From IMG/VR virus record IMGVR_UViG_3300048819_000060, positions 1-46,338 of that record: a stretch of 46,338 nucleotides of DNA, one strand, 5' to 3'. The notes under the pieces were generated by a model. It ran no database searches. It saw nothing but the letters and a program-made list of their open reading frames with translations, and was not told where the DNA came from. Within the stretch, counting starts at the first letter, position 1; the number at the start of each line of letters is the position of its first letter. Below, piece after piece: positions 2,869 to 46,338 of this stretch. Source of the stretch: a virus. Lineage: Duplodnaviria; Caudoviricetes. Position numbers and translations under genes: made by a program.

Positions 2869-4253
2869 GCGACGGACCACCGAACTGGGACGACATCCCG
2901 CCGGCTGACTATGGCCAGCCGTCCGGCGGCGGTGGCGGCAATCGGGGCGGCAAGAAGCCTCGCCCGCCCGCGATGACGGCGCAGGAGATGGCCACCGCCT
3001 CGGGCGACTTCTATGCGTGGCTCGAAACCGCCGCGACGCAGGCGCAGTTGAAGGTGGTCCTGCCCGATCACGTCGATCTGCCGCTGTTCATCGCGACCGC
3101 GAAGACCGCCGTTCTGACCAAGCCGCAGCTTCTGCGCGAGAACATGCGCCCGTCGCTGCTGGTGGCGATCATGAAGGCGGCCAGCCAGGGTCTGCTGCCC
3201 GACGGCAAGCAAGGCGCGCTGGTGCCGCGCTACGACAACGAGGCCGGCGGCTACATCGTCGCATGGCAACCGATGGTGCAGGGCATCATCAAACTCGGCC
3301 GGGAAACCGGCGCGATCAAGTCGATCCGCGCGATGATCGTCTTCCGCGGCGAGAACTTCCACGTCCTCGGCGGCGAGGAGGACCGGATCCAGCACGAAAT
3401 CGATATCGACATCGTCGATGAAGCCTACGCAGCGCTGAACGGCGGGCGTGACAACCACGGCAACCCGATCGCCCGACCGGCGGAGTTTTTCGCCCGGGTG
3501 CGCGCCGCCTACTGCTTCATCACCGGGGTCGATGGGACCGTGACGCGGCGGTACATGCCGCACCAGCGCCTTGTCAGCCTATGGGAAAGCAGCAAGGCGG
3601 CGAACGGCCCGTGGAATTCGCGCTGGATCGACGAGATGATCCTGAAGGGCGTGATCCTTTACACGGCGAAATGGATCAACCTCGACAGCGAGAGCGCGCC
3701 GGCGAAGCGTTTCAACGCCGCGCTGATGACCGACATGGAGATCGATTTCGACCGCCAGGGCCAGCTTACTGCCCCGGTGGCGCAGCCGCAGGCCGCTCTC
3801 CCGGCACCCGGGGACAAGCTGTCGACGCTCGAAGACGCCATCATGGGGAGGGTGACGAACAAGACGGTCAAGCCGCGCGAGACGGTTGCCAGTGGGTCGA
3901 ATAATCCCAGCGGGTCGAAGCCGGCGACCGCCAAGCCACGCGAACCGCCAGCCGGCGATACGGATTTCCTGCCGCGCGTGCTTGCCGTACTCGAGCGCGA
4001 GGGGAGCGGACGCGCCTGGATGAACGCGCTGACCGCCGCGACGATCGCCTGCCCGACAGCGGGCGAGCTGGGCGAGATCCGCAAGGCGGCGTCAGTGGTG
4101 GCCAACCTCAAGGACGCCCCGCCGGAGGTGCGCCCGCAGATCGCGGCACTGTTCGTCGCCGCCGCGCAGCGGCTGGCCGAACCGCAATCCGATGGCGCGG
4201 AGGACGGCGCCTGGAACGACCCCGCAGCAGAAATCAAAGGGAAAGCCGCCTGA
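2865..4253 (+). CDS. recT: RecT-family single-strand annealing protein with long C-terminal extension (462 aa)
   Basis: SLLVAIMKAASQGLLPDG..GALVP, WQPMVQGIIKL and GPWNSRWIDEMILKGVI match RecT. The TTG start at 2865 follows AAGGAG and overlaps the upstream TGA. Confidence 0.85.
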   Translation: MSDGPPNWDDIPPADYGQPSGGGGGNRGGKKPRPPAMTAQEMATASGDFYAWLETAATQAQLKVVLPDHVDLPLFIATAKTAVLTKPQLLRENMRPSLLVAIMKAASQGLLPDGKQGALVPRYDNEAGGYIVAWQPMVQGIIKLGRETGAIKSIRAMIVFRGENFHVLGGEEDRIQHEIDIDIVDEAYAALNGGRDNHGNPIARPAEFFARVRAAYCFITGVDGTVTRRYMPHQRLVSLWESSKAANGPWNSRWIDEMILKGVILYTAKWINLDSESAPAKRFNAALMTDMEIDFDRQGQLTAPVAQPQAALPAPGDKLSTLEDAIMGRVTNKTVKPRETVASGSNNPSGSKPATAKPREPPAGDTDFLPRVLAVLEREGSGRAWMNALTAATIACPTAGELGEIRKAASVVANLKDAPPEVRPQIAALFVAAAQRLAEPQSDGAEDGAWNDPAAEIKGKAA

Positions 4254-17900: not shown

Positions 17901-20900
17901 CGCCATCTCGCGGTCGGTCTCGGCTGCGGCGCGGGCGACATCGAGCTTGGTCACCACGTCACCCGACAGGTATTCGCCCTTCGTCTGATAGGTCTCGCGC
18001 GTGCCAGGCACCCGGTAGATCGCATCGCCCAACCCGGCGACAACCTGTTCTGGCGCAATGCCCATCTTCTCGGCGATGGCGCCGATATCGAGCCGCCCCA
18101 GCTTGTTCATCGACCACAGCGCGCCGTCCTGCGGCGAATTGATCTGCGGCTCCTCCTCGAATTTAAGGATGCTGCGGGTGAAGATCGGCTTCTTGGCGGC
18201 GGCGCCCGTGGCGTCGTTGTAGTCCTCGATCGAACGCAGCCGGTAGCTCTCCGGGTCCGTCATGAACGGCTTGACGTTGGGCCGCCGCTCGATCACCACG
18301 TCGGCCATGTCGGCGGGATCGAACTCGCCCTCTTTGAAGCCCCGGCCGGACTCCAGTGCGGCGACCCGCGCTTTCTGCCGGGCCTCGGCAATCTCGGTCA
18401 TCGTGGCCTTCGCCGCGAACATCGCCGACGGATCGAAATCGCCTTCGTTGAAATAGTCACCGAGGTATCGGAACTCCTCGCGGGCCTCCGCCCGTGCGGT
18501 TTCCTGCTGCACGATCGACGGGCGCTTGTAGGAGAACTCCGCCTTGTTGATCGGGCCGAAGAACTTGACGAAGTTGTCGTAGTGCCGGTTGAGATCCTTG
18601 CGCGCCGCGGCACCAGCGGCTTCATCGCGCGCCAGGTCGGCGGCGAACACCGCGCGCAGCGCATCGCGGACCGGGATCAGCTTCAGCACCCGGTCACGGT
18701 CGGCCGCCGTGAAGCCGCCTTTAACCCCGGCACCGCGCGCCGCCACGGGGCGCCCGGCACCGCGGCTGTACTGCATCAGCGTGCCGTCTTCGGCGCGATA
18801 GAAGCTACCATCCTTCTTTTCCGGGGCATCGAAGTCGAGCGCGGCGCGCACATCCGGCGTCGGCTCGTCCTCCATCACCCCACGGGGCAACCGCTCCAGT
18901 GCCGCGCGCAGGTCGCTGGCGAGATCGCTGTCCGGCCGCTCGTGCACCGCGTAGCGGTCCTTGTAGAGCTTGTCGAAAAACCCCTCTTCGCCCAGCACCA
19001 TCTCGGGATGGTCGGAGAAGTAGCGACTGACCTCGCCCTCGGTCGTCGTGCCTTCAGCGTTCGGCAGGGCGCGCCGCACGGTGCCGGTCCAGTCGGGCAG
19101 CGGCGCATCGTCGGCGATTTCGATCTGTCCCGCCATGCGGCGCTTGAAGAACAGGATGTCGGTGGTGACGTCGGTCATCGCGTTCTGCCGGAACGCGCTT
19201 GACGGCAACCGCACGCCGCCCTGGAACTCCGCCCGCTCCGCCAGATACTTCTGTGCCTTGGGGTTGATCTTGTTCATCGTGCCGGCGCTGGTGACGAACG
19301 CCAGCAGGCCGCCGGGACGTACCGCGTCGATCGACTTGGCGAAGAAATAGTCGTGCAGCATGAAGCGATTGGCGGCGTATTTCGGGTCCGAGTTGATCAC
19401 CACGTCGGCGAATGGCGGGTTGCCGATGACCAGGTCGAATGCTTTCTCGGGCAGCACCCGCTTGGCGAAGTCGGCGCGCACGATGGCTGACTGCGGATAC
19501 AGCAGCTTGGCGATATCGGCCGTCAGGTGGTCCATCTCCAGGCCGCGATAGGTACTGCGTTCGGCGAGATCGGGCGGCATCATGCCGAGGAAGTGCCCGA
19601 TGCCCATGCCGGGCTCGAACACCGACCCGCCGCTAAAGCCCATATCCTCGACAGCCTGCCACATCGAGCGGACAATATGCTCGGCGGTGTAGTGGGCGTT
19701 CTGCGTCGAGGCTTCGGCGGCGCGGTATTCATCCGGGGTCAGCAGGTCTTGAAGCCGGTAGCCCAAGGTCTCCATGCCCTTGCCGAACTGGCCAGTGCTG
19801 TCGCGGAAGATGTTTTTGATCCCGCCCCAGCCGACGTACTTCACCAGCACCGCCTGCTCCGCCGTGGTGGCCGGCCGGGCTTCCTCTTTCAGCCGGTTGA
19901 CCAGTTCGATGGCGGCGATGTTGTCGCGCGCCTTGGTGACGCGGCCTCGATCTTCGGCGACGTCGCCCGGTTCTATGACGAAGTTCTGGCCCTTGACGTT
20001 CGGCCCGGCTACGCGCCCTCGCTGGTCCCGAGGGCGTCCGGTGGCTGCTGGCGGCTCTCCCGCTTCGCCTCCTCCGCCGGGAACTCGATCAGGGTCGCCC
20101 TGACTGTCTCCTCCGCTTCCCGTCTCGCCTGCATTGTCGGGTCGCCGTACTGATCCTTGGGGGCGCGTGCCAGCATTTCCGTCAGCATTCGGTGCGCCTC
20201 CAGGCTCTTGTCCTGAAGGTGCTGGTCCAGCGTCCCCGCCCGGCGCATTTCCATGAACATCCTGGGCGCCTTCTCCCGCATCGCCTGGACGTACGGTAGT
20301 TTGAACTCCATCGCTGGTCTCCTGGCCGTCGACGCTAGGCGCACCGCCCGTTAGTTGCAACGTCGGTCCGGTCTGGTCAGCCGTTTGTGTGCTGCCTGGG
20401 TCGTTGATCTCCGCCAACTGATTGAGGACGTGCTGCCGGTCGATGGCGTAGCGCGCAGGGTCGGCGTTCTTGTAGCCCTTCTGAACTGCAATGTGCCCGT
20501 TCACAAAGCGGCTGAACGAACCCAGCAAACCCATAAGCCGGTCTTTGAGGTCGGAGCCGCGCCTGCTGGGAACGCCAAATCCCCTTTCGTACAAGCGCAA
20601 TCCCATCGCGTTCAGGCGATCGACCTGGGTTTGCACGGCTTGCTGCACCTGATCGGTGAGCGCCCTGGCATCCGGGGATGCGATATCCTTGAACTGCTGC
20701 CACTGGCGAGGCGCGTCCCGGCCCTTGGTCGGCATGAACTCGTCGAGGGAGAAAGTCTCGTGCGGCAGTTCGGGCGCATTGGCGGGATCGGCCGCAGCCT
20801 TGGCGTCCGCCAGTTTCTGCCGGTTGAACTCCACTCTTTCAGGCGTGAGCTTCAGATTGACGCTGGCGCGAACCGCCTTCGCCATGCCGGGGTTGCCTAG

Positions 20901-23900
20901 CTTTTCCCATTCGTCGGCAATCTCGTTGATCTGCCGCACCAGTTCCGGGTCGTTGTCGGTGACTGGCGTGAATACCGGCGGCCTTTGGACGACGGCGAAC
21001 ATGTCGTCATCGCTCCACACCGCACTGCGGGGAGTGTCAGCCGCCAGTTGGTCAGCTTCTTCCCTGGTCTCGATACCCTTTGCGATCAGCGTTCCGTATT
21101 TCCCCAGGCTGTCGCCGGGCTTGGCGTTCGCCCACACGTCTGCCGCGGTTTCCTCGACCGCCGCCGGCTTCACCTCCTGGTCGAGCAATTCAAGCGCCCG
21201 CCCCGCTATCGCCTGCTGGTTGCGACGGCCTTCCTCCGGGCTTTCAACCATCTCGGCCAGGCGGCGCCGAACGTCCGCATCCGTCGCGCCGTCCTCGCGC
21301 AGAGCGCGGAGCAAGCCACGGGCGCGCAGCGTGTAGGATGCGGCGGATACCGGCGGCGGCGCCGGGTCGTAGCCTTCCATGTCGTCGATCTCGTCGTCCA
21401 CCGCCGCCGGGGACCAGCCGAACAGATCGGCCTGCGCCGCAATCGCCGCGGCTTCGCCCCGGAACCGCCGGGCGCTGTCGACCAGGAACGTGTCGCCCCG
21501 GTAATTGACCTTGATCGCGGGTTCCTCGGCGTCCGCAGTTGCAATGCGGGCCTCAACGTATGTCGCGATGGATGTCGTCTGCGGCGGCGTCAGCTTATGC
21601 CTGATCGAGACGTCAGTCGGGTCGGAGGCCCGCCTTCCGCGTGGTGTGTTCAGCTCGTCATCCTTCGCCAGACCGACCTCGGCGGCATGGGTCGCATCGA
21701 CGAAATCCTTTACCCGGCGGGCTGGATCGCCGGACGGTGGCGCGTCACCATCCAGCATGCGGACGATCTCGTCGTGCGTCTCGTTGTCCCAGCCGTCGAT
21801 CATGCGGCCATCCGGCAGGACGAATTTGGCGTCTGCCGCCTCTCCCCCCGGGACAACGCGCAAATTCGCCCGCTCCAGGTCTTCAGGCGTGATCGTCCGG
21901 GTTGGGGGGGCTGGCGAGGGCTCGGGCGGTACGGTGCCGGGCGGCTGGATCGTGGTCGTCTTGCCGCTGCGGATGTTGGTGACGACGAGGCCGGGGTGCG
22001 TTTTCGGCTGCTCGTCGAACGGCCGCCGCTTCGCCGCCATCTTGGCCGCCGCTTCCTGCGCCTGCTCCAGCGTCCACGGATCCTGCCCGTCGGGTGCGCC
22101 ATCGACCCGCCGCTTGCCGGCATCCGTGCTCGCGAGCCCTGGTGTGTATTCAACGGCATAGCGGTTGGGCACGAATGGCAGCGGGACAATGCGCCAGGTG
22201 CCGTCGTGCTGGGCCGATCCGGTGTGCCTGATCGCGTTCCTGAAAGCGGTCTCGTTTATGCCGCGATCAGGGGCCTTCGGTTTGGACTCTGCCGACGCCT
22301 GGTCCGTCTCGGCGGGCGCCGGCACACGCTCGAAATCCACGCCGTAGAAGTGAGGTCCGCCGTTGACCGAGATCATCTCCCCGCGCGACGACGATTGAAC
22401 GTGGCTGATGGTGCCCGCGTTCTTGACGACGTCGAGACCACTGCCGGCCTTCGGCCTTACTTTCGTTCCGATGTCGGCAGAGGTGAACGGCTTCTCGCCC
22501 GGATCGGCAAGCGTCGGAACATCGGCGTGTGTCGCCTTCCGCTTGTCCGGTTTGGACTCTGCCGGCGGGGCCGCCTCGGGTTCGGGTGGCTTCGGCTCGA
22601 CCACCTGATAGTCGGGGTCTTTGTCCTCTGGCGCGGCGACGCTCGAGCCTCGCGGCCCGACGCGGACCTTCTCGGTGGAGCGAATGCCGTCGGCGACATA
22701 GGATCGCACGCCGTTTTCGTCCTCGTAGACCGGATGGCCGTCGCGGTTCTTGCCGATCTCGGTCCAACGGCCTGGCGCTCCGCCCGTTTGGGTCGGTTTA
22801 ATCGGCGACTTTTCCGGCGTGACTTTCGCTTTGGCTTCTGTCTGCCGGGTCTCAACCGTCGTGTCGGAGACACGCTTCCCGCGTGGCAGGAACTTCGGCG
22901 GCCGCGCCTCCGGGTCACGCGGCACGCGACCTTTCTGGGGGTGCTCGTCGGTCGGCTCCATGTGCGGCACGCCGTCGTCGTTGACCGCGCGCACGCCGTT
23001 CGGGTTCTCGTAGATGGCCTGGCCGTCGCCGTTCTTCTTACCGGTGTCGGTCCACGGGCCATGTTCGGCGTTGGTGATGTCGGGCACGGGTGTCGGTTCC
23101 AGTGCCGATCCCTCGGGCGCCGCTTCCGCCGCCGGTTCGGCCGCAGCCTTCGGTTTCTTCGGGTTCGAGCGGATGAACCAGTAGTCGCCCAGCTTGAAAG
23201 CGGAAGGGTCGCGCTTCCGCGCGCTGTCGGCGTCGAGGTCTTTGTGCAGCGTGCCGGTGAGCATACGGCCCTTCTTGGTGGTGTAGGTAACCTCTTCCTT
23301 TTCGTCGTGGTCGGGCGGCGGCGGAACAAATATGCCGCCTGGGTTGACGTTGGTCGGTGCCGGTTTGGCGGTTTCGCCCGCGGGCTTGCTCGCCTCGGCT
23401 TCCGGCGCGGCCTTCGTTTCAGGCTTTTCCGTGGTCGTCAGCGGCTGCTCGGGCGTTGGTGTGTCGGTCGCGGCGGCCGGCTTTTCGGTTGTGGCGGTGC
23501 TGGTCGTTTCGGTCGGTTCGTCGGCCTTGGTCGCGAGCGTCGTGGCGTCCTGACTTTTTGGCGTATCTGCGTCTTGAGCTTTTAACTTATCCGCGTCCTC
23601 ACTTGTTGGCTTATCGGCGTCCTGGCTTGCAGAGGTGCCCGACGTGGTGCGCGGCGTCTCCGCCGGCGGCGTCCGCGCCGCGACCACCTGTTCAGGTCGG
23701 ACGAACACACGCTCGCCGCTGCCATCCGATCCGAGGTCGACAACATGACGGCCGTCGGCGCGCGTGCCGACCAGCTTGCCGGTGGTGTGCTCGCCCTCCG
23801 CGTTGGCGAAGGTGACGATGTGGCCGGGCTTGGCGTCCGCCTTGGGAACCGGGGTATTCGGCTTCTCGGGTTCGGGCTCTGGCTTGGCCTCCGGCGGCGG

Positions 23901-24710
23901 TTCGTGCTCGACCGCCTGCAACCGGTCGGTGACGGGGTCGCGCTCATACAGCTTGTTCTTGCCGTCGGGTTGCGTCACCCAAACCCTGCCGTCGTCGCGC
24001 ACGCCGAACACCGTGCCTGGGGTTTCGCCGCCCATCGCCGGATTGATGACCGTGACCTTGTCGCCGCGTTTGAGCGATACTGGGTTGGGCGCGGAGGCGG
24101 TGCCCGTCCCTGCCCCTGCCGGCTTCGCTTGCGGGGCAGCGGTCGCCGCTTCCGGCGCGGGCAAGGCCAACGGTTTGTCGCCTTTGCGCGGATCGCCGGG
24201 CGCACCGGGCGGTGCGCCCGGCGAAGGTCTGCCGCCGGGCGCTCCGTCTGGACCAAACGGTTCCTCGGCGAAATTCATCCGCGGCGCAGACGGGATGCCG
24301 CCTGGCGCCGGCCGGGCGCCCAACCATGTCGCGGCGTTGATGTCGCCGCGCACCGTCGGATCGTCGACCGGCCGCTCGCCTAGCGCCTCCTGGCCGCCAG
24401 CCTGAAGGCCCCGGATCGGTGACGCGATCATCCCCGGCGTGAACAGTTCGGGCGCCTGGAAGTCGCCGAACGGCGTGTGGTAGGTGCCCGTGACGACATT
24501 CCCCTTGTCGTCGGCCATAAATGGCAGCACGGAACCGCGATAGAACCCGGGCGGCGTCTGGAACGGCAGTGCCGCGTCGGCCGGACTTATGGTTTGCGGT
24601 GTGGCAGATCCGATCGGCGTGCCGATGCTGTCCCAATCGAACGCCTTTTTGTCCTTAGCCTCGCCCTCGACCGGCGCACCAATGCTGTCCCAATTGAAAC
24701 CGTCGGGCAT
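11940..24710 (-). CDS. Giant DarB-like polyvalent virion protein: N6-adenine methyltransferase + SNF2-like helicase + accessory domains (4256 aa)
   Basis: MTase motif I FEPGMGIGHF (~19600) and motif IV IGNPPF (~19415). Helicase motifs AHAIGAGKT (~17290), FVDEAH (~16820), SGT and QRNGRMLRQGN (~15760). C-terminal GVKPEEMEW..HWNEPNVMAHVRF..QEVQSDW domain and JAB-like HHNHP...SPED (~12600). Lies among the ejection genes. Confidence 0.88.
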   Translation of the reverse strand: MPDGFNWDSIGAPVEGEAKDKKAFDWDSIGTPIGSATPQTISPADAALPFQTPPGFYRGSVLPFMADDKGNVVTGTYHTPFGDFQAPELFTPGMIASPIRGLQAGGQEALGERPVDDPTVRGDINAATWLGARPAPGGIPSAPRMNFAEEPFGPDGAPGGRPSPGAPPGAPGDPRKGDKPLALPAPEAATAAPQAKPAGAGTGTASAPNPVSLKRGDKVTVINPAMGGETPGTVFGVRDDGRVWVTQPDGKNKLYERDPVTDRLQAVEHEPPPEAKPEPEPEKPNTPVPKADAKPGHIVTFANAEGEHTTGKLVGTRADGRHVVDLGSDGSGERVFVRPEQVVAARTPPAETPRTTSGTSASQDADKPTSEDADKLKAQDADTPKSQDATTLATKADEPTETTSTATTEKPAAATDTPTPEQPLTTTEKPETKAAPEAEASKPAGETAKPAPTNVNPGGIFVPPPPDHDEKEEVTYTTKKGRMLTGTLHKDLDADSARKRDPSAFKLGDYWFIRSNPKKPKAAAEPAAEAAPEGSALEPTPVPDITNAEHGPWTDTGKKNGDGQAIYENPNGVRAVNDDGVPHMEPTDEHPQKGRVPRDPEARPPKFLPRGKRVSDTTVETRQTEAKAKVTPEKSPIKPTQTGGAPGRWTEIGKNRDGHPVYEDENGVRSYVADGIRSTEKVRVGPRGSSVAAPEDKDPDYQVVEPKPPEPEAAPPAESKPDKRKATHADVPTLADPGEKPFTSADIGTKVRPKAGSGLDVVKNAGTISHVQSSSRGEMISVNGGPHFYGVDFERVPAPAETDQASAESKPKAPDRGINETAFRNAIRHTGSAQHDGTWRIVPLPFVPNRYAVEYTPGLASTDAGKRRVDGAPDGQDPWTLEQAQEAAAKMAAKRRPFDEQPKTHPGLVVTNIRSGKTTTIQPPGTVPPEPSPAPPTRTITPEDLERANLRVVPGGEAADAKFVLPDGRMIDGWDNETHDEIVRMLDGDAPPSGDPARRVKDFVDATHAAEVGLAKDDELNTPRGRRASDPTDVSIRHKLTPPQTTSIATYVEARIATADAEEPAIKVNYRGDTFLVDSARRFRGEAAAIAAQADLFGWSPAAVDDEIDDMEGYDPAPPPVSAASYTLRARGLLRALREDGATDADVRRRLAEMVESPEEGRRNQQAIAGRALELLDQEVKPAAVEETAADVWANAKPGDSLGKYGTLIAKGIETREEADQLAADTPRSAVWSDDDMFAVVQRPPVFTPVTDNDPELVRQINEIADEWEKLGNPGMAKAVRASVNLKLTPERVEFNRQKLADAKAAADPANAPELPHETFSLDEFMPTKGRDAPRQWQQFKDIASPDARALTDQVQQAVQTQVDRLNAMGLRLYERGFGVPSRRGSDLKDRLMGLLGSFSRFVNGHIAVQKGYKNADPARYAIDRQHVLNQLAEINDPGSTQTADQTGPTLQLTGGAPSVDGQETSDGVQTTVRPGDAGEGAQDVHGNAPGGDAGPAPSGQEPGGAPNADGNAGTRPQGSVRRPDNAGETGSGGDSQGDPDRVPGGGGEAGEPPAATGRPRDQRGRVAGPNVKGQNFVIEPGDVAEDRGRVTKARDNIAAIELVNRLKEEARPATTAEQAVLVKYVGWGGIKNIFRDSTGQFGKGMETLGYRLQDLLTPDEYRAAEASTQNAHYTAEHIVRSMWQAVEDMGFSGGSVFEPGMGIGHFLGMMPPDLAERSTYRGLEMDHLTADIAKLLYPQSAIVRADFAKRVLPEKAFDLVIGNPPFADVVINSDPKYAANRFMLHDYFFAKSIDAVRPGGLLAFVTSAGTMNKINPKAQKYLAERAEFQGGVRLPSSAFRQNAMTDVTTDILFFKRRMAGQIEIADDAPLPDWTGTVRRALPNAEGTTTEGEVSRYFSDHPEMVLGEEGFFDKLYKDRYAVHERPDSDLASDLRAALERLPRGVMEDEPTPDVRAALDFDAPEKKDGSFYRAEDGTLMQYSRGAGRPVAARGAGVKGGFTAADRDRVLKLIPVRDALRAVFAADLARDEAAGAAARKDLNRHYDNFVKFFGPINKAEFSYKRPSIVQQETARAEAREEFRYLGDYFNEGDFDPSAMFAAKATMTEIAEARQKARVAALESGRGFKEGEFDPADMADVVIERRPNVKPFMTDPESYRLRSIEDYNDATGAAAKKPIFTRSILKFEEEPQINSPQDGALWSMNKLGRLDIGAIAEKMGIAPEQVVAGLGDAIYRVPGTRETYQTKGEYLSGDVVTKLDVARAAAETDREMARNVSALEAAQPAPLPPSQVTMMLGMPWIPANVVLDFARDHLQIGQPRIIYSPELGAWNVEEPKGGGNRFPGYHQWSTPDKDAYDLLGHALNRTKPKIMMGPREERVVDTVATQAASDKIEAMKEAFFGLESRLGWVMDDPARANALADIYNAKMNRTVPRVHDGAYLTTPGVAAGWSWRPHQTRVVSRIILEGSTYMAHAIGAGKTSAMIGAGMEMKRLGLVRKPMYVVPNHMLGQFTKEFYEQYPTARIAVASEEQFHTGRRKQFMANVAQDDLDAVIITHSSFKKIPISDEFQAALIEEEIQTLLAAIKKTKDRFTVGRLQNQIAKLREKLSKATGGDKDETLTFEEMGIDFLFVDEAHGFRKLSFASAQSSVKGIDPAGSAQAWDLYTKVRYLDQQKPGRAAVFASGTPVTNTMGELYSLSRFLQPKAMAERGVAHFDAWAQTFGAMKTELEETPAGTYAPQTRFQRFMNMPELYQMVSGIMDIVTSKELEQYVVRPKLKGGKREQHMAPRTDILDRYQAQLGARMEAIKARRGKPSPGDDIILSVINDGRHAAIDPRFVEQSQSDPRSKLNMMVDNVVRIYRETGDVQFYSPGSNYTAPSFRGPATQMIFANLGVNGRGPAGFSSYKWMKEAFRRAGIPANEVAFIGDYKSTLAKQTLFNDMNEGKVRILIGSVPKMGTGVNAQRRLIALHNQDPLWYPADDDQRNGRMLRQGNHNPEVSIHDYTTFGTYDSQMWKMMASKAGFIEQFFRGDPNLRDMEDIGEASQYAQASAMSTTDPRIITLTQMKEDVAKARRRQSAHEQEQWTLRSRMEGHLAEAARLEKLAGLISEDITKRQDTRGKNFTITLDGETITDRDEADEVMPMLAIERADSMAVGGTSTIGRFGGFPVQVNLYGKNGEHVIQLGLSGGRVSWLSRPGVVASAEYKLRSFESDRAEAIQKGAEATRDAQAIAPNIGKAFDGGPEIARLANEIRQLEATLKAEAAAVEAAKNGRAPPPPIESAVAASGFTPTPGLEWTTDEGERDVRGLPAGGLAESSPVPLYSAVQRAADGLKQAKGTGEQMLSMIARTPGVKPEEMEWMGLPDWLKGQKSVTREQIQDYVRANSLDVREVTLGDFQGAVNAAEMALSEAWQARNVARGAIDNILNRYYRYAVEMNGDRLYIEDVTAGLEDGVLKPLDLPDRYGAGLPDAAAAYKRAADHAKTAEAQLDSAKAEAKAAKPTKFGSWLKPFQTTDKYREMLLTLPPKTGAWEVFDPHDGFAVASFDTEAEAKAYAAQRGQRFDYGLRDAADNPATFKSGHWNEPNVMAHVRFDERTAPDGARVLMVQEVQSDWGQAGRKQGYKSPDAANEVRRIQELIDQNREELDRREPGIDFGYEGDVQRAYGRHPDLAVREGALYSELARAKEARDNGVPPMPFKTSWPMLIMRRMIKFAVDNGFDRVAWSPGSVHADRYSLARQVDAVMATRLLDGSGNYRVEAFKNNDRLFDKTVPEKELPDTIGKELAEKIAAQSDGLKKYTGLDLKLGGEGMKGFYDDILPKETNKIIGKFGARVGKGDVRTAAPFYDIVSADGRENYATIATRERAEAALPSVAASLGVPVDTLRVQQGHGEQTAPVHQFDITEPMRDAVQTQGMALFERKRGITQNKAAKSGMSRGERAVGATPTTTPRPASAPQVSRWVGGGGPGFRDLLHLAPEAGHAAAAWVVERGLATGAEHIAVVDNRTGAIVHAGTNGLVGNLWLDFVSTPTERDAYTIHHNHPRSTAISPEDIRILANPGIRAVVAHGHDGNFTRVWPGAGLALRTRTPANIRKNSKTLTEAYAEADARTQKLLQWLVDEDKISPDEGHHFWYDVTNRFLQADGIIDYLSSQPLPAPIRMALHRELRKLGHVDARYTVSVRPEERNAGLPGGVREDQGPRSTRSGSGGDGEGAGISGKAGPKGSGGETGGGGLREEAGSVDEGSNALARLMPPPRTPPSTNALARMS
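12023..12232 (-). CDS. Small protein overprinted on the C-terminal tail of the giant gene (alternate frame)
   Basis: AAGGA RBS before the ATG; amphipathic helical sequence MLDTPSPFAPRSEMLAFLEECEKI; the host frame here is a disordered G/S/R-rich tail. Confidence 0.45.
   Translation of the reverse strand: MWMLDTPSPFAPRSEMLAFLEECEKIKDHDPHGQVQAAMEKVRGYLAKPDPREAVAKRAAAVSAKKPAA
20009..20311 (-). CDS. TnpV-like small protein overprinted inside the giant gene (alternate frame, 100 aa)
   Basis: AGGAG 7 nt upstream of ATG 20311. YVQAMREKAPRMFMEMRRAGTLDQHLQD...ARREAEETVRATLIEFP resembles TnpV-family helical proteins. The host frame is a G/P/D-rich linker. Confidence 0.55.
   Translation of the reverse strand: MEFKLPYVQAMREKAPRMFMEMRRAGTLDQHLQDKSLEAHRMLTEMLARAPKDQYGDPTMQARREAEETVRATLIEFPAEEAKRESRQQPPDALGTSEGA
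23535..23630. repeat. 8-bp periodic repeat array inside the giant gene, copy 4
   Basis: gagcgtcg tggcgtcc tgactttt tggcgtat ctgcgtct tgagcttt taacttat ccgcgtcc tcacttgt tggcttat cggcgtcc tggcttgc (12 units); locally AT-richer; encodes SQDADKPTSEDADKLKAQDADTPKSQDA. Confidence 0.65.
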
Positions 24711-35222: not shown

Positions 35223-35270
35223 CGGCGTCGATGCGTAAATACGTCATGAGCTGATGGCTTTTTAACGTCA
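35223..35270. repeat. 8-bp periodic repeat array in an intergenic gap of the tail operon, copy 5
   Basis: cggcgtcg atgcgtaa atacgtca tgagctga tggctttt taacgtca; fills the gap between two otherwise tightly packed genes. Confidence 0.65.
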
Positions 35271-37103
35271 TGAAACGTCGACCTCGGCATCAATGATGGC
35301 GACCGCGAACGGATCGCTGCTGCTGAGTTCGAAATAGCGATCGCTGCCGCCGAACCTGCGCGTCATGCCGAGGCGGTTGAACTTCACGCTCTGCGTGGTC
35401 GCGCCAAGTTCGCCGACCGGCTGGAACCGCTGCTCAGACCAGGTGCGCCCGCCATCGTCGGACCAGCGCAGCATGACCTGGGGCTTCGTCCCGGCGGGCA
35501 CGCCCTGGCCGGTCTGCATGTTGATAACGAGCGAGGCGAACCGCTTGGCGGCTGGACTGTTGCCCGCGACCGCGCGCCACCGCCGCACCCATCGACGCTG
35601 CGTGCCGTTATCGGTGAGCGTGGCCGGATTGAACGCATAGAGGTTGCCGGTTCGGTAGTCGCCCAGCACGCCGTTCCCGGGCGAGCCGGTGACGAACGTT
35701 ACGGTTGTCTCGGACGCCTGGGGCGGATTGCTCGGCCCGGCCGCGAGCGTGCCGGCGGAGACGGTGAACGGACCGCCGCGGCCGTTGTCAGCGGCGAAAC
35801 TCGACGGTGTGCCGTTCGAGGTCAGGAACACCGGCGGGGCGACCTGAAATGGCGCCGAGCCGTCCGCGCCGAGGTTCTGCGCCGCACCGACCTCGGAGAT
35901 GAACCTGCGCCGGTTCGACACCACGGTCAGATCCACGAAGGCAGCGGTCGGGCTGAACCAGAGATCCGCCACGATGACCTTCTGCGGTGGGGTATAAACC
36001 CCGCTCAGCAGGAACCACGCCGGCCCGAAGCTGCTTGGCGTGCCGCTAACGGGGGTCGGGTTCGGGGAGCCAGCCACGCTGCCGTAGACCACGACGAGCG
36101 CCAACTGGTCCGAACTGGCCACGCCAACGCCGCTGGCATTATCGGTCACCGTGGCAGTGGTTCCGGCCATCGTGTCGATGATGAGCGCGCCGGTGCTGTC
36201 GACGACTGGCAGTCCACCGCCCACAATGCTGAAATTATTCAGCGCAATGGCGGGCGACGGATTGATGATGTTCCACAGAATCGCACCGGTTGCGACATCG
36301 ACTTTGACCAACCGCCCGCCCGGCCCGGTCGTGCCTACCGCGACGATGACGTTGCCGTCCATCGCGTCATACCCGATCGCGCTGGCGGACACGTACGTCC
36401 ATGTCGGATCGATGGTGGCGACCGGGATCGAGGCGATCAAAGCGGTCGTGATGGCGGGGTTCTGGGTTGGCCAGGAGCTGATGTTGTAGGCCGACGCCGC
36501 CGGCAGAATGGTGACCGACTGAACGGTCAGGTAAGCGGGTGTCCCGTCGCTGTTCGCGGCGGGATCAGACGCCAGATAGACCGCACCGCCTGCCGCGCCT
36601 GATGTCCCCCGGCACATCACGTGGGCCTTGCAGATCGTCGACATCTGGAACCCCGCCGGCGCCAGCGTGTCGACGCGCACGACAGACAGCGTGTCGGAGA
36701 TGAACGACTTCATCACCGCATAACTGACGGTGCCGGCCTGCACGCAGATGATCTGCTGTGCGACGACGAGGCTGCTCGGATACGAGGGAAAGCTGCCGAA
36801 GCTGCCCCATGTGGCTAGCTGTGCGAAGCTGGTCTGGTCGAACTTGTAGATCGGCGCCGCATTGTAGCCCCCCGGCTGACAGATGATGTTGCCGGTCAGC
36901 GGGTCGATATCGAGCGCCTGGATGCCGAAGGTCAGCGTGGTGGAGCCGATCGGGCTTTGCGTCTCCATCGTCGCGGCGAAGCTGTAGATCGTGCTGTTCC
37001 TGTAGAGATAGATGCGCCCACGCGCCCAGTCGACACAGGCGTACGAGGCGGAGCCGCCCGGTGGCAGATTGAGTTGCGCCGACTGGCTGGCGAATGTCGT
37101 CAT
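35268..37103 (-). CDS. Tail protein: beta-rich domain + second half of lectin-like insert + C-terminal part of P22 gp10-like hub (611 aa)
   Basis: ATG 37103 overlaps the upstream TGA. The last ~130 aa (GDYRTGNLY...MQTGQG..PQVMLRWSDDGGRTWS...VGELG...FNRLG...FELSSSDP) are the typical gp10-family C-terminus. Confidence 0.8.
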   Translation of the reverse strand: MTTFASQSAQLNLPPGGSASYACVDWARGRIYLYRNSTIYSFAATMETQSPIGSTTLTFGIQALDIDPLTGNIICQPGGYNAAPIYKFDQTSFAQLATWGSFGSFPSYPSSLVVAQQIICVQAGTVSYAVMKSFISDTLSVVRVDTLAPAGFQMSTICKAHVMCRGTSGAAGGAVYLASDPAANSDGTPAYLTVQSVTILPAASAYNISSWPTQNPAITTALIASIPVATIDPTWTYVSASAIGYDAMDGNVIVAVGTTGPGGRLVKVDVATGAILWNIINPSPAIALNNFSIVGGGLPVVDSTGALIIDTMAGTTATVTDNASGVGVASSDQLALVVVYGSVAGSPNPTPVSGTPSSFGPAWFLLSGVYTPPQKVIVADLWFSPTAAFVDLTVVSNRRRFISEVGAAQNLGADGSAPFQVAPPVFLTSNGTPSSFAADNGRGGPFTVSAGTLAAGPSNPPQASETTVTFVTGSPGNGVLGDYRTGNLYAFNPATLTDNGTQRRWVRRWRAVAGNSPAAKRFASLVINMQTGQGVPAGTKPQVMLRWSDDGGRTWSEQRFQPVGELGATTQSVKFNRLGMTRRFGGSDRYFELSSSDPFAVAIIDAEVDVS

Positions 37104-39433
37104 GCGGATGCCGCCTGCAAATGCCACGGCTGGCTCGCCGCCGGTGCGATCGGATTGGTCGACGCCCAGGTGATCGCGACCGGCGTCAGCCGCGTCTCGA
37201 CCAGCACCGCCGAGACGATCGTGCTGGCATATGCCTGCAAGACCTGCGTCGCGGTGTCGATGGAGAGCAGGATGTTCACCCAGCTCCCCCAGCTCGCGTA
37301 ATCATAGGTCGCGGTGACGATCGCGGCGCCGGTGGCGTCGAACGCCTCGACGGTGATCTGCGGTGTGCCGGTGGCATCGTTATGGATCGCGACGAACAGG
37401 CCCGGGGTGGTGGTGGCGTGGGTGTCGTCGGTCTGGTTGGAGAAGATCAGCCCGGTTGTGGATCCGTCCGGGATCAGCAGCCACACGCTCAGCAATGCCG
37501 TGGCGAACGACCGCGCCAGACCGTTCAAGCCGGTCGTCGTGGCAAGCCGTGTCGGTGAGACGATGGTGACACTGTTGGCCTGATAGGTGCTCGTTTGACT
37601 GATCGGCCCGCCAGTGCCACGCCAGTTCCAGAAGCAGTTGCCCCAGTGGCGGCTCATCATGCCGGGCGTCGTGCCGGAAGGCGCGCCAGCTTCCCACGCC
37701 GCAAGCCGGTTCCACAGCGGGTAGCCGAGCATGGCGCTCGACGTCATGTCATACTGCCAGGTCCGGTTCGCCTCGGGGAAGGTCAACACATAGAAAACGT
37801 GGCCGCCCTGCTGGTAGCCGTAGCCGATGGCGTCGCCGCGGTTGGCATAGCCGTCGAACTCGTTGGTCAGCGCCTGCGTCGAGATGACGTCGACCTGATA
37901 GCCCTTGGCCATGACCACGAGCCCCTGGCCCTGGTCGTTGCGCGCCAGCCAGATCAGCACCTCGCCCAGCTTCGCCAGCGAGAACGGCGCCTCGATGCCG
38001 TATTCCATGTGCACGGCACTCAGCGGCTGGAAGGCGAAGCCGGCCGTCCCGGCATCGGCCCAGACCTCGGTGTTGCGCTGTTTCGGGATGAATGCCTGAT
38101 CGTGGATCACCGCGATTGCCATGCAGTTATCCGGCGACTGGTTGGCGACGCCGTAATTCAGCGCCTGCCACGTCGACAGATCGGCCTCGTCTGACTGCGC
38201 GATGGATTGCGAGCCCCGGAACACCAGCAGGCCGAAGCCGTCGCTGATCGCGCCCATGACCGGGTTGGGGAATGGCAGGATCACCGGCACCACGCCGACC
38301 CACGCGCCATACCCGGGCGAACTCAAGGTGAAGCCCGAGCCCGAGCCGGTGGTTGATTTCTGTTTGAAGGTCAGTGGCCAGTCGCCGGCCGACACCGCGC
38401 CGCCCTGGCTGACGGTGAAGCCGGTCACGCTGCCTGACGCGCCTGTCGCTGTGACGAGGTAGGTGGCGTCGTCGCTTCCGCCCGAGATCAACCCGACCGC
38501 GCCGACGACATAGCCCTGCCCGGCGGCGGCGAGCGTGGAGCCGGTGATCGGCCCGGACGAGGCGGTGATATTGAGCCTGAGACCAAGCCCGGCGTTGGCC
38601 GGCACGGCGGGCGCCGCGGCCGTCGTCGCCCCGGTGTATGCGGTGTAGGAGGTGCCGGGGTTGAGCATGGTGACTGCGGTCACCGCCCCGCCGCTGATGG
38701 TTTTCACCTGATAGACCGCATCGCCGCTGCCGCTGCTGATGAACCCGGTGTCGCCCACGGCATAACCGGAACCGCCGCTGTCGACGCCGATCGAGCCGAT
38801 CGGGCCGCCGCCGGCCGAGATGTTGATCAGCAGCCCGGACCCGACCCCGGCCTGTCCGGCGATCGCCGTCGTCGGGACGTTGGTCGCGCTGCTGTAGCTG
38901 GTGCCGTAGCTGCCCAGCTTGTAGGTGGTGACCGGGTTGTTCGAGATCGCGCTGACGGTGATGACCGGGTTGGCCGAAGCCGTTCCGCTGTCGCCTTGCA
39001 GGGTAATTTCGTCGTTGATCGCATACAGCCCGCCAGGCGCGTCGATCGTGCCACCGGTGAGCGGCGAGCCCCCCGGCACCAGCCAGCCGCCGACGCCGTC
39101 GACAATCATCAACTGCGTGGTGTTGGCGAACATCGAGACCGGGGTCTGAGCGGCGCCGATCGAGCCGCAGAGCGTGGCGACGCCGTTCGATGTCAGGCTG
39201 TAGACGTCCGGGCCGGAGACCACATAGAGCAGGCCATTGAGGTCGCGCACACCGCGGATCGGACCGCTGCCCAGTGCGGCGACCAGATCGAGGCCGGGGG
39301 CGTTGTAAAGCGCGCCAGGGGCAACCCCGTCTTTCGTTTCGACTATCTCGACTATGAGATTGACTAATTCATTGTCGGCAAGAAACCTCGACCGCGCCGC
39401 CGAGAAGCCGCCAAGGATTGGGGACTTCGCCAC
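37100..39433 (-). CDS. P22 gp10-like DNA stabilization/tail hub protein, N-terminal part with insertions (777 aa)
   Basis: LYNAPGL...GPIRG..LYVVSG, VSMFANTTQLMIVDG, TEVWADAG, GIEAPFSLAKLGEVLIWL, ISTQAL and YQQGGHVFYVLTFPEANRTWQYD; contains duplicated GGSGY-type beta inserts. Confidence 0.85.
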   Translation of the reverse strand: MAKSPILGGFSAARSRFLADNELVNLIVEIVETKDGVAPGALYNAPGLDLVAALGSGPIRGVRDLNGLLYVVSGPDVYSLTSNGVATLCGSIGAAQTPVSMFANTTQLMIVDGVGGWLVPGGSPLTGGTIDAPGGLYAINDEITLQGDSGTASANPVITVSAISNNPVTTYKLGSYGTSYSSATNVPTTAIAGQAGVGSGLLINISAGGGPIGSIGVDSGGSGYAVGDTGFISSGSGDAVYQVKTISGGAVTAVTMLNPGTSYTAYTGATTAAAPAVPANAGLGLRLNITASSGPITGSTLAAAGQGYVVGAVGLISGGSDDATYLVTATGASGSVTGFTVSQGGAVSAGDWPLTFKQKSTTGSGSGFTLSSPGYGAWVGVVPVILPFPNPVMGAISDGFGLLVFRGSQSIAQSDEADLSTWQALNYGVANQSPDNCMAIAVIHDQAFIPKQRNTEVWADAGTAGFAFQPLSAVHMEYGIEAPFSLAKLGEVLIWLARNDQGQGLVVMAKGYQVDVISTQALTNEFDGYANRGDAIGYGYQQGGHVFYVLTFPEANRTWQYDMTSSAMLGYPLWNRLAAWEAGAPSGTTPGMMSRHWGNCFWNWRGTGGPISQTSTYQANSVTIVSPTRLATTTGLNGLARSFATALLSVWLLIPDGSTTGLIFSNQTDDTHATTTPGLFVAIHNDATGTPQITVEAFDATGAAIVTATYDYASWGSWVNILLSIDTATQVLQAYASTIVSAVLVETRLTPVAITWASTNPIAPAASQPWHLQAASA

Positions 39434-40364: not shown

Positions 40365-42278
40365 GTGATTTCCGCCCCCATTATTCCACAATTTGGCATG
40401 GACCCGAAATTGCTCCATGTCTTCGCGCCGCGATTTAATCCATTGGGTTTCAGTCAGCCGCACCAGCATTGGGAACGCTTCGCGCAGCATATGCTCGATT
40501 CCGGCGTGCATCTGACTGTTGTCGAATGCGTTTCGCCCGGCGAGGACTTTCATTGCACTGCGCCGCCGATGTCCGATCCGGCACACGCCGATCGCTTCCA
40601 GCACATTGGCGTCTACGCGAAAACCCGCGCGTGGACAAAGGAGAACCTAATTGTCCTCGGCGTACAACGCACTCCCCAGGCGCAGTTCATCGCCTGGCTC
40701 GACGCCGACATCACCTTTCGTCGGCAAGACTGGGCCTCGGCCACAGTCAAGGCTCTGCTGCACTATGAAATCGTGCAGCCATGGAAGAGTTGCCTCGACC
40801 TCGGGCCGAACGGCGAAATCATCGCCGTCCATACAAGCTTCTGCCACCAGATGTGGCAGGGCCAGCCGCTGGCGCCGCCTGACTGGAAAACACCATACTG
40901 GATCGGTGACGGCGGCTCGGCCGTCTATCCGCACTGCCTACCGGGGGATAGCCTCGTGGTGCCAGGTGGGAAGGTCATAGCCGCGAGCCGGCGTCCATAC
41001 GAAGGCGATCTCGTCGTCATTCGCACGGCCAGCGGTCAGGAGTTGTCCTGCTCGCTCAATCACCCGGTATTCTCGGGTAGCGAATGGGTCCGAGCCGATC
41101 GCCTCAACGTGGGCGATAATGTGTTGCGCCACGTCCGGGGGAACGGGCTTCTTGGCAAGCCAGACGAAAAGCAGCCCCCAGCCCGCATTGAGGATGTAGT
41201 TCGTTCGTTCAGCGAACGTGCGGGCCGCGACCGATTTGCACACCTTTTGCCTGACGATCTCGACAATAACCGGTCCAATTGCAAAGTCGCCGAGGTATGG
41301 GCCGATCGCCACCTGACGACAGAACGTCACGCCAGCAGCGCCAAGCAAAGCGGCGACTTCAATTTCGGTCGGATTGGACATCTGACCGCCGATCGTTTCG
41401 ACCGTCTTGGCTCGCATGATCTTCTTTGCCAGGCTCTCGGTCTTGCCACGCCTGCCAATCAGCCCACCGCGTCGGCCGGCTTCACGCCTGAACTCTTCGG
41501 TGGTCTTTTCGAGCATCCCAACGCTGATCGCCGCGCCGATTTGCTGACGTCGTTCGGCGCTCGCTCGATCCCAGGCCAATCGGCGACGGGTACTGGCAAT
41601 CTCCCCACTGGTTCTCGCTGCAGCATGCGCGGCACGGACATCAGCGGGAACGCGCTTGGCGATGATCTGTCGCGCATACCGTTCATTCATGCCGACGACC
41701 CCGGCGCACTCCGGCGCGGGCTTGCCGGACAAGTAGAGCTTGATGAGGTGGTCTATGTCGGCCGTCGTGAATTTCTTGGGCATCTGTACGATCTGCAGAC
41801 TGAGAACGGCTACATCATTGCTGACGGCATTCTGACGCACAATAGCGGGTTCGGGTGGGGCACAACGCGCGCTATCTGGGATGCGATCGGCGGGCTGTTC
41901 GAATACGGCGCAATGGGCAGCGCCGATCATCACATGGCCGCATCTCTCGCCGGTCTCGCGCACAAGACGTTGCCCCCCGGCAATACCTCAGCGAACTACT
42001 GTGCCGAGGTGCTGCGCTGGCAGCGCCGCGCGCAGGCCGCGATCAACGGCAATGTCGGCTACGTCGATGGCGTGATCGAGCATAGCTTCCACGGTGCGAA
42101 ACGGAACCGCTCCTACATCGGCCGGTGGGCGATGTTCCTCGAACACGGCTTCGATCCGCTGGAGGATCTGTGCCGCAACAGCTACGGCGTCTGGGAGTTC
42201 GCGACGAAGAAACCGCGCCTGCGCCGCGCGTTCGATCGTTACCTGCACAGCAGAAACGAAGATGGCAATTCGATGTAA
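40365..42278 (+). CDS. GT-A-fold glycosyltransferase-like protein interrupted by an intein (637 aa precursor, ~334 aa spliced)
   Basis: GTG 40365 after GAGGT (alternative ATG 40398). WTKENL, IAWLDADITF (DxD) and IVQPW precede the intein; SGFGWG...IGGLFEYGAMGSADHHMA, HSFHG and SRNED follow it. Confidence 0.8.
   Translation: MISAPIIPQFGMDPKLLHVFAPRFNPLGFSQPHQHWERFAQHMLDSGVHLTVVECVSPGEDFHCTAPPMSDPAHADRFQHIGVYAKTRAWTKENLIVLGVQRTPQAQFIAWLDADITFRRQDWASATVKALLHYEIVQPWKSCLDLGPNGEIIAVHTSFCHQMWQGQPLAPPDWKTPYWIGDGGSAVYPHCLPGDSLVVPGGKVIAASRRPYEGDLVVIRTASGQELSCSLNHPVFSGSEWVRADRLNVGDNVLRHVRGNGLLGKPDEKQPPARIEDVVRSFSERAGRDRFAHLLPDDLDNNRSNCKVAEVWADRHLTTERHASSAKQSGDFNFGRIGHLTADRFDRLGSHDLLCQALGLATPANQPTASAGFTPELFGGLFEHPNADRRADLLTSFGARSIPGQSATGTGNLPTGSRCSMRGTDISGNALGDDLSRIPFIHADDPGALRRGLAGQVELDEVVYVGRREFLGHLYDLQTENGYIIADGILTHNSGFGWGTTRAIWDAIGGLFEYGAMGSADHHMAASLAGLAHKTLPPGNTSANYCAEVLRWQRRAQAAINGNVGYVDGVIEHSFHGAKRNRSYIGRWAMFLEHGFDPLEDLCRNSYGVWEFATKKPRLRRAFDRYLHSRNEDGNSM
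40935..41843 (+). mobile_element. Class 1 intein, 303 aa
   Basis: Block A CLPGDSLV (Cys1 at 40935), block B LSCSLNHPVF, WVRADRLNVGD, block F/G HLYDLQTENGYIIADGILTHN, and +1 Ser at 41844. Removing it rejoins YPH|SGFGW. Confidence 0.93.
40938..41783 (-). CDS. Antisense-encoded HTH + DUF559/Vsr-like endonuclease nested in the intein (281 aa)
   Basis: MPKKFTTADIDHLIKLYLSGKPAPECAGVVGMNERYARQII (HTH), basic helical spacer, then SNPTEIEVAALL..GVTFCRQVAIGPYLGDFAIGPVIVEI...RTNYILNAGWGLLFVW. The TAG is complementary to intein codon 2. Confidence 0.78.
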   Translation of the reverse strand: MPKKFTTADIDHLIKLYLSGKPAPECAGVVGMNERYARQIIAKRVPADVRAAHAAARTSGEIASTRRRLAWDRASAERRQQIGAAISVGMLEKTTEEFRREAGRRGGLIGRRGKTESLAKKIMRAKTVETIGGQMSNPTEIEVAALLGAAGVTFCRQVAIGPYLGDFAIGPVIVEIVRQKVCKSVAARTFAERTNYILNAGWGLLFVWLAKKPVPPDVAQHIIAHVEAIGSDPFATREYRVIERAGQLLTAGRANDDEIAFVWTPARGYDLPTWHHEAIPR

Positions 42279-43516
42279 TGTCTTACACCAGCAAATGGAC
42301 CCCGCATGCCAGCCAGTGCCGATACTGCGGGGCACCAGCGCTCAAGTTTCGCCGCTGGAGCCCGGCACCGGGCGCCGACGAAGACATCTGCTTTTCTTGC
42401 GACGCCTGCCGCCAGGTCTGGTGGATCGAGGCCGCCGCTTCGCCAGAGGATGCCCGAATGAAAATTGCGGTCAAACCATACGCCATGCGCCTGTCGGGCA
42501 CAGTCGCCCAACAGCCCTATTCCATGTCGTGGACTATTCCTGCGCTATGCGCCGCTTACGACTGGCCTGACGACGCACCGGGCGGCGGGATGATTGCGAT
42601 CATCGAACTCGGTGGCGGGTGGAAGCAGTCTGATGTTGAGCAGGCATTCGCCGCGATGAAACTGCCCGCGCCGTCGATCACCGATGTCTCGGTCGATGGT
42701 ACGACCAACAGCCCAGGCGCCGACGCTGATGGAGAAGTGGCGCTGGACATCCAGGTCGCGGCGGCGAGTTACACCGTTGCCACGGGGGGCAAGCCGGCGA
42801 CGCTGCGCATCTACTGGTGCCAGGACATCGCCGCCGGCGTTGCCGCAGCGCAGGCTGATGGCTGTGACGTGTGTTCGATCTCCTGGGGGCTCGACGAAGC
42901 GTTGTGGGGGAAGGTCGATGGTTACGCGATGGATGCGGCGGCAACGGCAGCGACCAACGCTGGCATGGTGATCTGCGCCGCGGCAGGCGACAACGACAGC
43001 TCTGATGGCGGCACGACGCCAGCCAATGTCGATCTGCCTGGATCGGCGCGCCGGGTGATATCCTGCGGCGGCACCAGCCGCTGGCCATCAGGCACCGAAG
43101 TTGTCTGGAACAACGAGAACGGCAAGTCGAACGGCTCCGGCACCGGCGGCGGCTACTCGACGCTGTTTGCGATGCAAGTCTGGCAGACCGGCGCTCCGCG
43201 GCCACCGCCTAGTCTCGGCCGCATGGTACCCGATGTCGCGGCCTGCGCCGATCCGAACACCGGCTATCAGATCGTGCTGGACGGTCAGGTCGAAGTTGTC
43301 GGCGGCACCAGCGCCGTCGCCCCACTCTTTGCCGGGCTGTTCGCCGCGTGCGGCCGGAAGCTGGGCTTCATCGCACCCAAGCTCTACGAGAACAAGACGG
43401 CGTTCCGCGACATCATGCACGGCAACAACGGTCTGTACCATGCCGGTCTAGGCCCCGACCCCTGCTCGGGTATCGGTTCGCCGAACGGCAAGGCGATCGT
43501 CGCGCTGTTCGTCTGA
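42278..43516 (+). CDS. S53 sedolisin/kumamolisin-like serine-carboxyl peptidase with N-terminal Zn-ribbon instead of a prodomain
   Basis: IAIIELGGG, catalytic GEVALD (ExxxD), SISWG, AAGDND, GTGGGYS, RMVPDVA, GGTSAVAP (Ser) and Ca-site FRDIMHGNNG..DPCSGIGSP. Coupled ATG at 42278; a second ATG at 42458 follows GAGGA. Confidence 0.9.
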   Translation: MSYTSKWTPHASQCRYCGAPALKFRRWSPAPGADEDICFSCDACRQVWWIEAAASPEDARMKIAVKPYAMRLSGTVAQQPYSMSWTIPALCAAYDWPDDAPGGGMIAIIELGGGWKQSDVEQAFAAMKLPAPSITDVSVDGTTNSPGADADGEVALDIQVAAASYTVATGGKPATLRIYWCQDIAAGVAAAQADGCDVCSISWGLDEALWGKVDGYAMDAAATAATNAGMVICAAAGDNDSSDGGTTPANVDLPGSARRVISCGGTSRWPSGTEVVWNNENGKSNGSGTGGGYSTLFAMQVWQTGAPRPPPSLGRMVPDVAACADPNTGYQIVLDGQVEVVGGTSAVAPLFAGLFAACGRKLGFIAPKLYENKTAFRDIMHGNNGLYHAGLGPDPCSGIGSPNGKAIVALFV

Positions 43517-45912: not shown

Positions 45913-46338
45913 TTAGGCAAGCCCGGTTTCCTTGTCGACTGTTAGCTCCTCCATCTCTGCGATGGTACTTCCAAGCCGGTGCAAAGCCTTCAAGAGCCCT
46001 TTTCCCATGCCGTCAAAGTTATCCACAGGCCCTTTGACGCTGTTTTTAACCTCCGTCTGTAAGAAAGAACTTCTTGAATCTTTAAGAGTTTTGTTTCCTC
46101 CCGGAATTTCCGGCTTAGGTGCCATCGCGCGGAAAACGTAGGCATTCGAGGTCCGCAGCACGCGCCCGCCAGCACGGACGAGGCGGGTGAAAACGCGTAG
46201 CACCCCGGCGAACTCAAGCATCTTGATGGCTTCGAGCACCGTATCGCGATGGCATCCGGTCTTGCCGGCTATCGCCTCAAGGCTCGGAAAGCAGAAGCCC
46301 GTCTTTTTGTGGGCGAAGTCCATGAGCGCCCACAGCAC
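45913..46338 (-). CDS. Partial winged-HTH replication initiator-like protein (5' end outside window)
   Basis: ALMDFAHKKTGFCFPSLEAIAGKTGCHRDTVLEAIKMLEFAGVL...RTSNAYVF is the HTH_36-type pattern of phage/plasmid Rep proteins. Confidence 0.8.
   Translation of the reverse strand: MLWALMDFAHKKTGFCFPSLEAIAGKTGCHRDTVLEAIKMLEFAGVLRVFTRLVRAGGRVLRTSNAYVFRAMAPKPEIPGGNKTLKDSRSSFLQTEVKNSVKGPVDNFDGMGKGLLKALHRLGSTIAEMEELTVDKETGLA
46019..46100 (+). promoter_or_regulatory. Candidate replication origin: DnaA box plus AT-rich tract inside the rep gene
   Basis: Perfect TTATCCACA at 46019-46027, followed by an AT-rich stretch (tgtttttaac...aagaaagaacttcttgaatctttaagagttttgttt) in a high-GC genome. Confidence 0.55.

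Follow-up and report, generated by a model that had tools for sequence, protein, structure and literature searches.

An intein with an antisense Vsr-like nuclease gene in a phage glycosyltransferase-like gene, probably derived from minor-capsid inteins

We analysed a 46,338-nucleotide stretch of viral DNA (Duplodnaviria; Caudoviricetes; IMG/VR record IMGVR_UViG_3300048819_000060), here called the window, in which a glycosyltransferase-2-like (GT2-like; GT below) gene is split by an intein whose opposite strand carries, in exact codon register, a gene for a predicted homing endonuclease with a Vsr-like fold. With a probability of about 0.72, we read the element as a member of the antisense-VSR intein family that jumped from a minor-capsid gene into the GT-like gene, splices, and spreads by means of its antisense nuclease. 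The initial annotation of this DNA had described a 303-aa intein with a 281-aa in-register antisense open reading frame (ORF), and both were confirmed. Its suggestion that such an architecture was undescribed did not hold, as a 2025 preprint already shows this layout in phage head genes (Fig. 3C of bioRxiv 10.1101/2025.01.02.630785). What is likely new in this lineage is the switch of host gene together with a rewritten active site that lacks the usual catalytic histidine. Coordinates of all features are collected in Table 1.

The intein begins with a cysteine at 40935 and ends with His-Asn at 41843, followed by serine in the plus-strand ORF, and all class 1 residues are present (C1, block B H43, H302, N303, and Ser+1). 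A Hint fold was predicted for it. Close homologues without the insert read YPH/SG (the slash marks the junction), and the intein is precisely absent from P0155 to P0164; 80 viral loci yielded 62 distinct empty alleles. As judged from sequence, the sense precursor would splice at C1 and N303/Ser+1 to give an intact transferase. The N-terminal Hint lobe is approximately 20 to 30 residues below canonical length; the block B histidine lies at position 43 here and at 42 to 43 in 53 of 57 relatives, compared to 63 to 70 in four canonical inteins. The spacing between blocks A and B accordingly departs from the usual one, which is typical of class 1 and not strictly defining. At positions 41083 to 41084, the window has AA, whereas GC stands in all three DNA runs and in L004 and L187 (a change of E to G in the sense frame and of F234 to A in the antisense frame); AA is either a minor variant or an assembly error.

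The antisense gene starts at an ATG that is the complement of the block F histidine and stops opposite Leu2. Its product was predicted to adopt a Vsr fold (1CW0, 3R3P) after a long helical stretch, and no endonuclease fold was predicted in the sense insert, as had been anticipated for the two frames. The antisense protein is under purifying selection (antisense pN/pS of 0.33 to 0.51), which bears out the earlier proposal of a doubly coded element with the nuclease as a separate antisense gene. The accompanying description of the sense insert as an antisense shadow stood only in part: no endonuclease fold appeared in it, but its residues 82 to 124 are constrained and residues 81 to 90 are confidently modeled. 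An open antisense frame was rejected as evidence by itself, because in-register open frames are common in this genome (11 of 33 long frames in the window lack an antisense stop). This openness, and the finding that the single antisense protein matched no Pfam nuclease and no PDB sequence, would suit an ORF that is a GC-rich shadow frame resembling a nuclease by chance. That explanation is already refuted by the selection pattern and has next to no probability left, given 840 relatives of the antisense protein at E<=0.001, the predicted Vsr fold, and conserved start signals.

These signals are an antisense extended -10 element and a Shine-Dalgarno (SD) sequence, which in relatives lie inside blocks F and G. 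In the last 60 intein bases, read antisense, a -10 matching at least 5 of 6 positions occurs in 26 of 63 relatives (null 7.8), an SD in 46 (null 12.8), and an ATG or GTG in 46; an extended -10 was found in 14 of the 63 (null 1.5, maximum of 6 in 2,000 recodings). The p values for these signals are optimistic, as the 63 rows are related. Within the GT lineage, L281 keeps the extended -10 and L186 keeps GGAGG. In one RNA run, the contig covers only 40473 to 40735 and carries no strand information.

A family-profile scan found the family in at least 530 viral stretches, indicating that antisense-VSR inteins are far from rare. A nuclease match was present in 98 of 99 loci examined, each with a long opposite in-register ORF (79 distinct). 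The 80 loci analysed are the best of the at least 530, and the ranking query overlaps the Hint lobe, favouring intein-embedded copies. Of 93 loci, 71 yielded intein boundaries; the pattern missed the other 22, including the GT members, for which a motif of their own was used instead. Eight rows that were mis-called or duplicated were dropped before trees and signal counts. Nearly all called junctions are of the H-x-x/C-x-C type, and 10 of 12 scanned host ORFs match Mu_F, min_cap2, or VG15. The antisense protein of the window likewise matches MuF-like genes of Gordonia phages on their antisense strand (tblastn E of 2e-9 against the Fosterous MuF antisense ORF). The GT-gene intein occurs in six divergent alleles (window type, L005, L186, the partial L189, L281, and P0165). 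The large tree includes four GT bearers, which group as a single clade (100/99) nested within the minor-capsid family, and L281 joins the GT intein clade (98/95). Hardly any other in-frame position of the GT gene is as similar to minor-capsid junctions as the insertion site, although its absolute score is weak. Separately, the host ORF at L006:2512-4464 (minus strand) has two intein-like C termini, suggesting a second or nested insert.

On the extein tree, the five complete bearers are scattered among intein-free alleles, each in a place of its own, a pattern that points to homing after the jump to the GT gene. Pro occupies position +1 in 35 of the 62 empty alleles. By established intein chemistry, Pro at +1 is incompatible with a splicing intein, so these 35 alleles could not host one. 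Extein searches rank empty alleles above split ones, and for this reason we claim no invasion frequency. We consider it very improbable that the intein entered the GT gene once, long ago, and has since passed down vertically with many precise losses, or travelled by ordinary phage recombination, with no homing at the site. Such a history would agree with intein identities of 52 to 64%, which fall within the extein range, with the lack of any near-identical intein found in divergent exteins, and with the poorly resolved branching of the GT intein clade. It is harder to square with bearers in 5 of 48 sampled rows, four of these bearers having an empty allele as nearest sister (98% identical in one case), or with a Hint identity to L005 of 90% against 61% for the extein, and it leaves the long-term selection on the nuclease without a cause.

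In the EDxHD endonuclease I-Bth0305I, H213 is the putative base and D222N is inactive (PMC3239194). The Glu170 and Asp196 equivalents of EDxHD, E140 and D166, are both present in the antisense protein. The H213 equivalent is absent, its place being taken by Cys182, or by Val181 with a gap; a caveat in the initial annotation that the DG..H segment was not obvious is correct. Because the antisense protein lacks both the named base and the D222 equivalent, it does not carry the EDxHD motif, although it resembles an EDxHD nuclease in its predicted working. Substitutions in the Vsr-like domain are N164L, A173I, G178R, and His to Cys182; in the GT-lineage nuclease, the Asn164, Gly-Gly, and Trp-His of the family are all replaced, Arg-Gln is new, and Cys182 stands in a column that is His in 124 of 150 family rows and in 50 of 55 in a second set. 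C182, S184, and R193 are invariant in the GT lineage, with synonymous variation. His-less variants also occur elsewhere in the family, in 9 other rows of 73 and in phage Fosterous. The alteration is common to all GT members covering the site, whose exteins are 43 to 75% identical, indicating that the spread among GT alleles followed the change. Since His-less variants recur and the change would predate the spread, we argue that nuclease function was probably retained despite the loss of His. As a separate observation, L063, L064, and L086 form another His-less nuclease clade (EVTGR), with min_cap2-type hosts.

Taken together, the intein likely descends from one in a phage minor-capsid gene that jumped to the GT-like gene, where splicing would restore the transferase. 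Signals lying antisense within blocks G and F (a promoter, a ribosome-binding site, and a start codon) would allow the nuclease to be produced as a free protein, which would bind and cut the intein-free YPH/SG site in a co-infecting phage or prophage, with repair copying the intein in. Two further points have less support: DNA likeness between the old and new sites may have aided the first jump, and the active site may still cut despite its changes (Cys in place of His, a new Arg-Gln).

Several results weigh against this reading. The -10 and SD of the window are themselves weak, and promoter scans called no promoter in the window or in L281. The I-Bth0305I H213-equivalent His and the conserved Asn are absent from every GT-lineage member covering them. 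The D222 equivalent is not conserved in the family, the aligned column being F/H/T in a sequence alignment, which is not a residue-level structural one. The scores of the GT site, between -2.7 and 6.0, fall far short of those of native junctions (median 16.6), and the five changes on the extein tree could include losses. No intein-free (909-nt) joint was found in the three DNA runs, from which contigs drop rare variants. In two of these runs, a nuclease-damaging 282-bp deletion lies beside the full allele (depth 6.4 versus 18.6 in X5 and 2.3 versus 2.8 in X11); it leaves both frames open and removes approximately aa 53 to 146 of the nuclease, including E140. Taken alone, the nuclease core shows no significant position bias (p of 0.09 to 0.46), because the sense frame is constrained there too.

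It is accordingly conceivable, if unlikely, that the antisense protein is made and is catalytically dead or dying here, being kept as a DNA-binding protein or by selection of the recent past, while the intein is passive and on its way to a mini-intein. The lost His and Asn, the weak expression signals of the window, and the deletion allele without E140 would all follow from this, as would L189, a GT-lineage copy on a short contig in which G replaces D166 and a stop interrupts the C-extein, possibly a dead copy. Against a dead enzyme, the altered site is shared by all covering members, so that spread followed the change, C182, S184, and R193 stay invariant amid synonymous variation, and His-less variants recur. 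We therefore retain the reading of an element that spreads by its nuclease, and lean slightly toward the window copy being active at present.

Both strands appear constrained opposite the nuclease active site. Opposite the nuclease core, F-H-G-D-G is kept in the sense frame of relatives (46 to 54 of 55 relatives per position), with the antisense wobble fixed; the motif is lost in the GT lineage, yet both frames are frozen at that stretch. Degenerate positions that are antisense-invariant are also sense-invariant at 21 of 43 sites in the core versus 2 of 25 in the helical region (p of 5e-4, four sequences). Residues 81 to 90 may, from their model, complete the shortened Hint domain. A profile of sense residues 70 to 135 had no match among PDB and NCBIfam inteins, and hhalign of the conserved block against four canonical N termini gave a probability of 0.7%. 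These profile tests do not support the block as a displaced Hint piece; only the model confidence of residues 81 to 90 fits one. A tentative and rather doubtful extension is that a Vsr-fold homing endonuclease that cuts without a His base was rewritten (Cys, Arg-Gln) during the gene jump, with active-site codons that also encode a piece completing the short Hint. If so, the two enzymes, one for splicing and one for cutting, would be overprinted beyond separation, and neither could be retargeted without changes to the other. L052, L058, L079, and L094 have approximately 40 extra residues past block A, resembling the shadow of a longer nuclease tail.

The identity of the extein as GT2-like is weakly indicated by Pfam Glycos_transf_2 (best E of 0.01, matches in 6 of 19 members) and by an Atlas cluster match of the host protein to 'putative Glycosyl transferase family 2' (TM of 0.91). 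The window record occurs in peat metagenomes. A search of the genome collection with P0155 alone gave no match, and one with the alignment gave 186 stretches, the top rows of which are mainly Acetobacteraceae or alphaproteobacterial assemblies; these only hint at such a host for the phage. The structural genes, on the minus strand, include P22-like head-closure and DNA-ejection genes. A Peptidase_S8 (subtilase-family, E of 1e-10) gene at 42446 to 43516 (plus strand) adjoins the GT-like gene on its 3' side, and both oppose the structural module. At 35268 to 39433 (minus strand), two neighbouring genes both match head-closure family phrog_578, the first with its N-terminal part (profile 150 to 329) and the second with its C-terminal part (344 to 470), each with long extra regions. 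A 4256-aa ORF at 11940 to 24710 (minus strand) is overlain by in-register antisense frames open up to 1464 codons. The window also encodes a RecT-like annealing protein (2820 to 4253, plus strand) and a replication-initiator helix-turn-helix (HTH) fragment (45913 to 46338, minus strand).

Table 1. Positions of the intein, its antisense gene, and associated features in the window
Feature	Positions	Strand	Remarks
Host gene, GT2-like, DxD motif WLDAD, split by intein	40398..42278	+	Alternative start ATG 40338, upstream
Class 1 intein, 303 aa, insertion site YPH/SG	40935..41843	+	Intein-free alleles known
N-terminal Hint lobe, aa 1-68	40935..41138	+	pLDDT 86-98; overlaps nuclease C-terminal tail
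Sense residues 82-124, constrained in both frames, opposite nuclease active site	41178..41306	+	Residues 81-90 pLDDT 95
C-terminal Hint lobe, aa 250-303, blocks F and G	41682..41843	+	pLDDT 85-98
Antisense gene, predicted homing endonuclease, 281 aa, exact codon register with intein	40938..41783	-	
HTH domain, antisense protein aa 1-46	41646..41783	-	
Vsr-like nuclease domain, antisense protein aa 134-252	41028..41384	-	E140, D166, E175 retained
Shine-Dalgarno position of the family	41790..41799	-	Weak in window
Extended -10 position of the family	41829..41834	-	Weak CAGAAT without TG in window
282-bp stretch absent from co-occurring allele	41345..41626	.	L187, P0153; joint 41344>41627 in runs X5, X11

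The GT lineage is a compact test case: the new target is defined, natural empty alleles reach 98% identity, a deletion allele occurs in nature, and the start signals are intact in some relatives and weakened in others. Cutting by the His-less enzyme, if it takes place, would add a catalytic variant to the Vsr-fold nucleases and show retargeting under two-strand constraint. The accessible part of bioRxiv 10.1101/2025.01.02.630785 (Gosselin, Arsenault, and Gogarten) describes full inteins of actinobacteriophages that carry anti-sense VSR-like homing endonucleases, refers to antisense LAGLIDADG cases of 1998 and 2002, and leaves open whether the antisense nucleases are expressed and still drive homing; an experimental test of either was not found in the portions of the literature examined. 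Its main text contains neither 'glycosyl' nor 'promoter' (0 occurrences each), and judging from listings, searches of the openly accessible literature showed no glycosyltransferase-hosted antisense-VSR intein or block G antisense promoter.

Compared to the inteins in the available part of that preprint, the present element shares a contiguous intein with an antisense nuclease ORF, the Vsr fold, and homology to the actinobacteriophage members. It differs in its Ser +1, its active site without His, and its GT2-like host, which lies outside the reported host genes, a descriptive and not a defining trait. With the EDxHD enzyme I-Bth0305I (PMC3239194) and the Vsr-like genes of fractured loci (PMC2677866), as far as those sources were accessible, it has in common the Vsr fold and an N-terminal DNA-binding region, and with EDxHD endonucleases the E170 and D196 equivalents and an invariant Glu at the Vsr Phe62 position. 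In contrast to them, it lacks the H213 and D222 equivalents, has an HTH in front, and lies antisense within a contiguous intein, whereas the I-Bth0305I and fractured-loci genes lie in an intron or between split-intein halves. The cyanobacterial dnaX intein with an out-of-frame endonuclease (accessible part of bioRxiv 10.64898/2026.09.14.751524) is similar in its frame-dependent selection and in full and reduced alleles within one population; there, however, the endonuclease is a LAGLIDADG enzyme in the +2 frame, and here it is an antisense Vsr-like gene. The likely jump to a new gene at a site of similar DNA resembles the terminase-to-Cas4 extein switch described in the portion of bioRxiv 10.1101/2025.01.02.630785 available, except that the endonuclease is nearly identical there, while here the active site was rewritten on a long branch.
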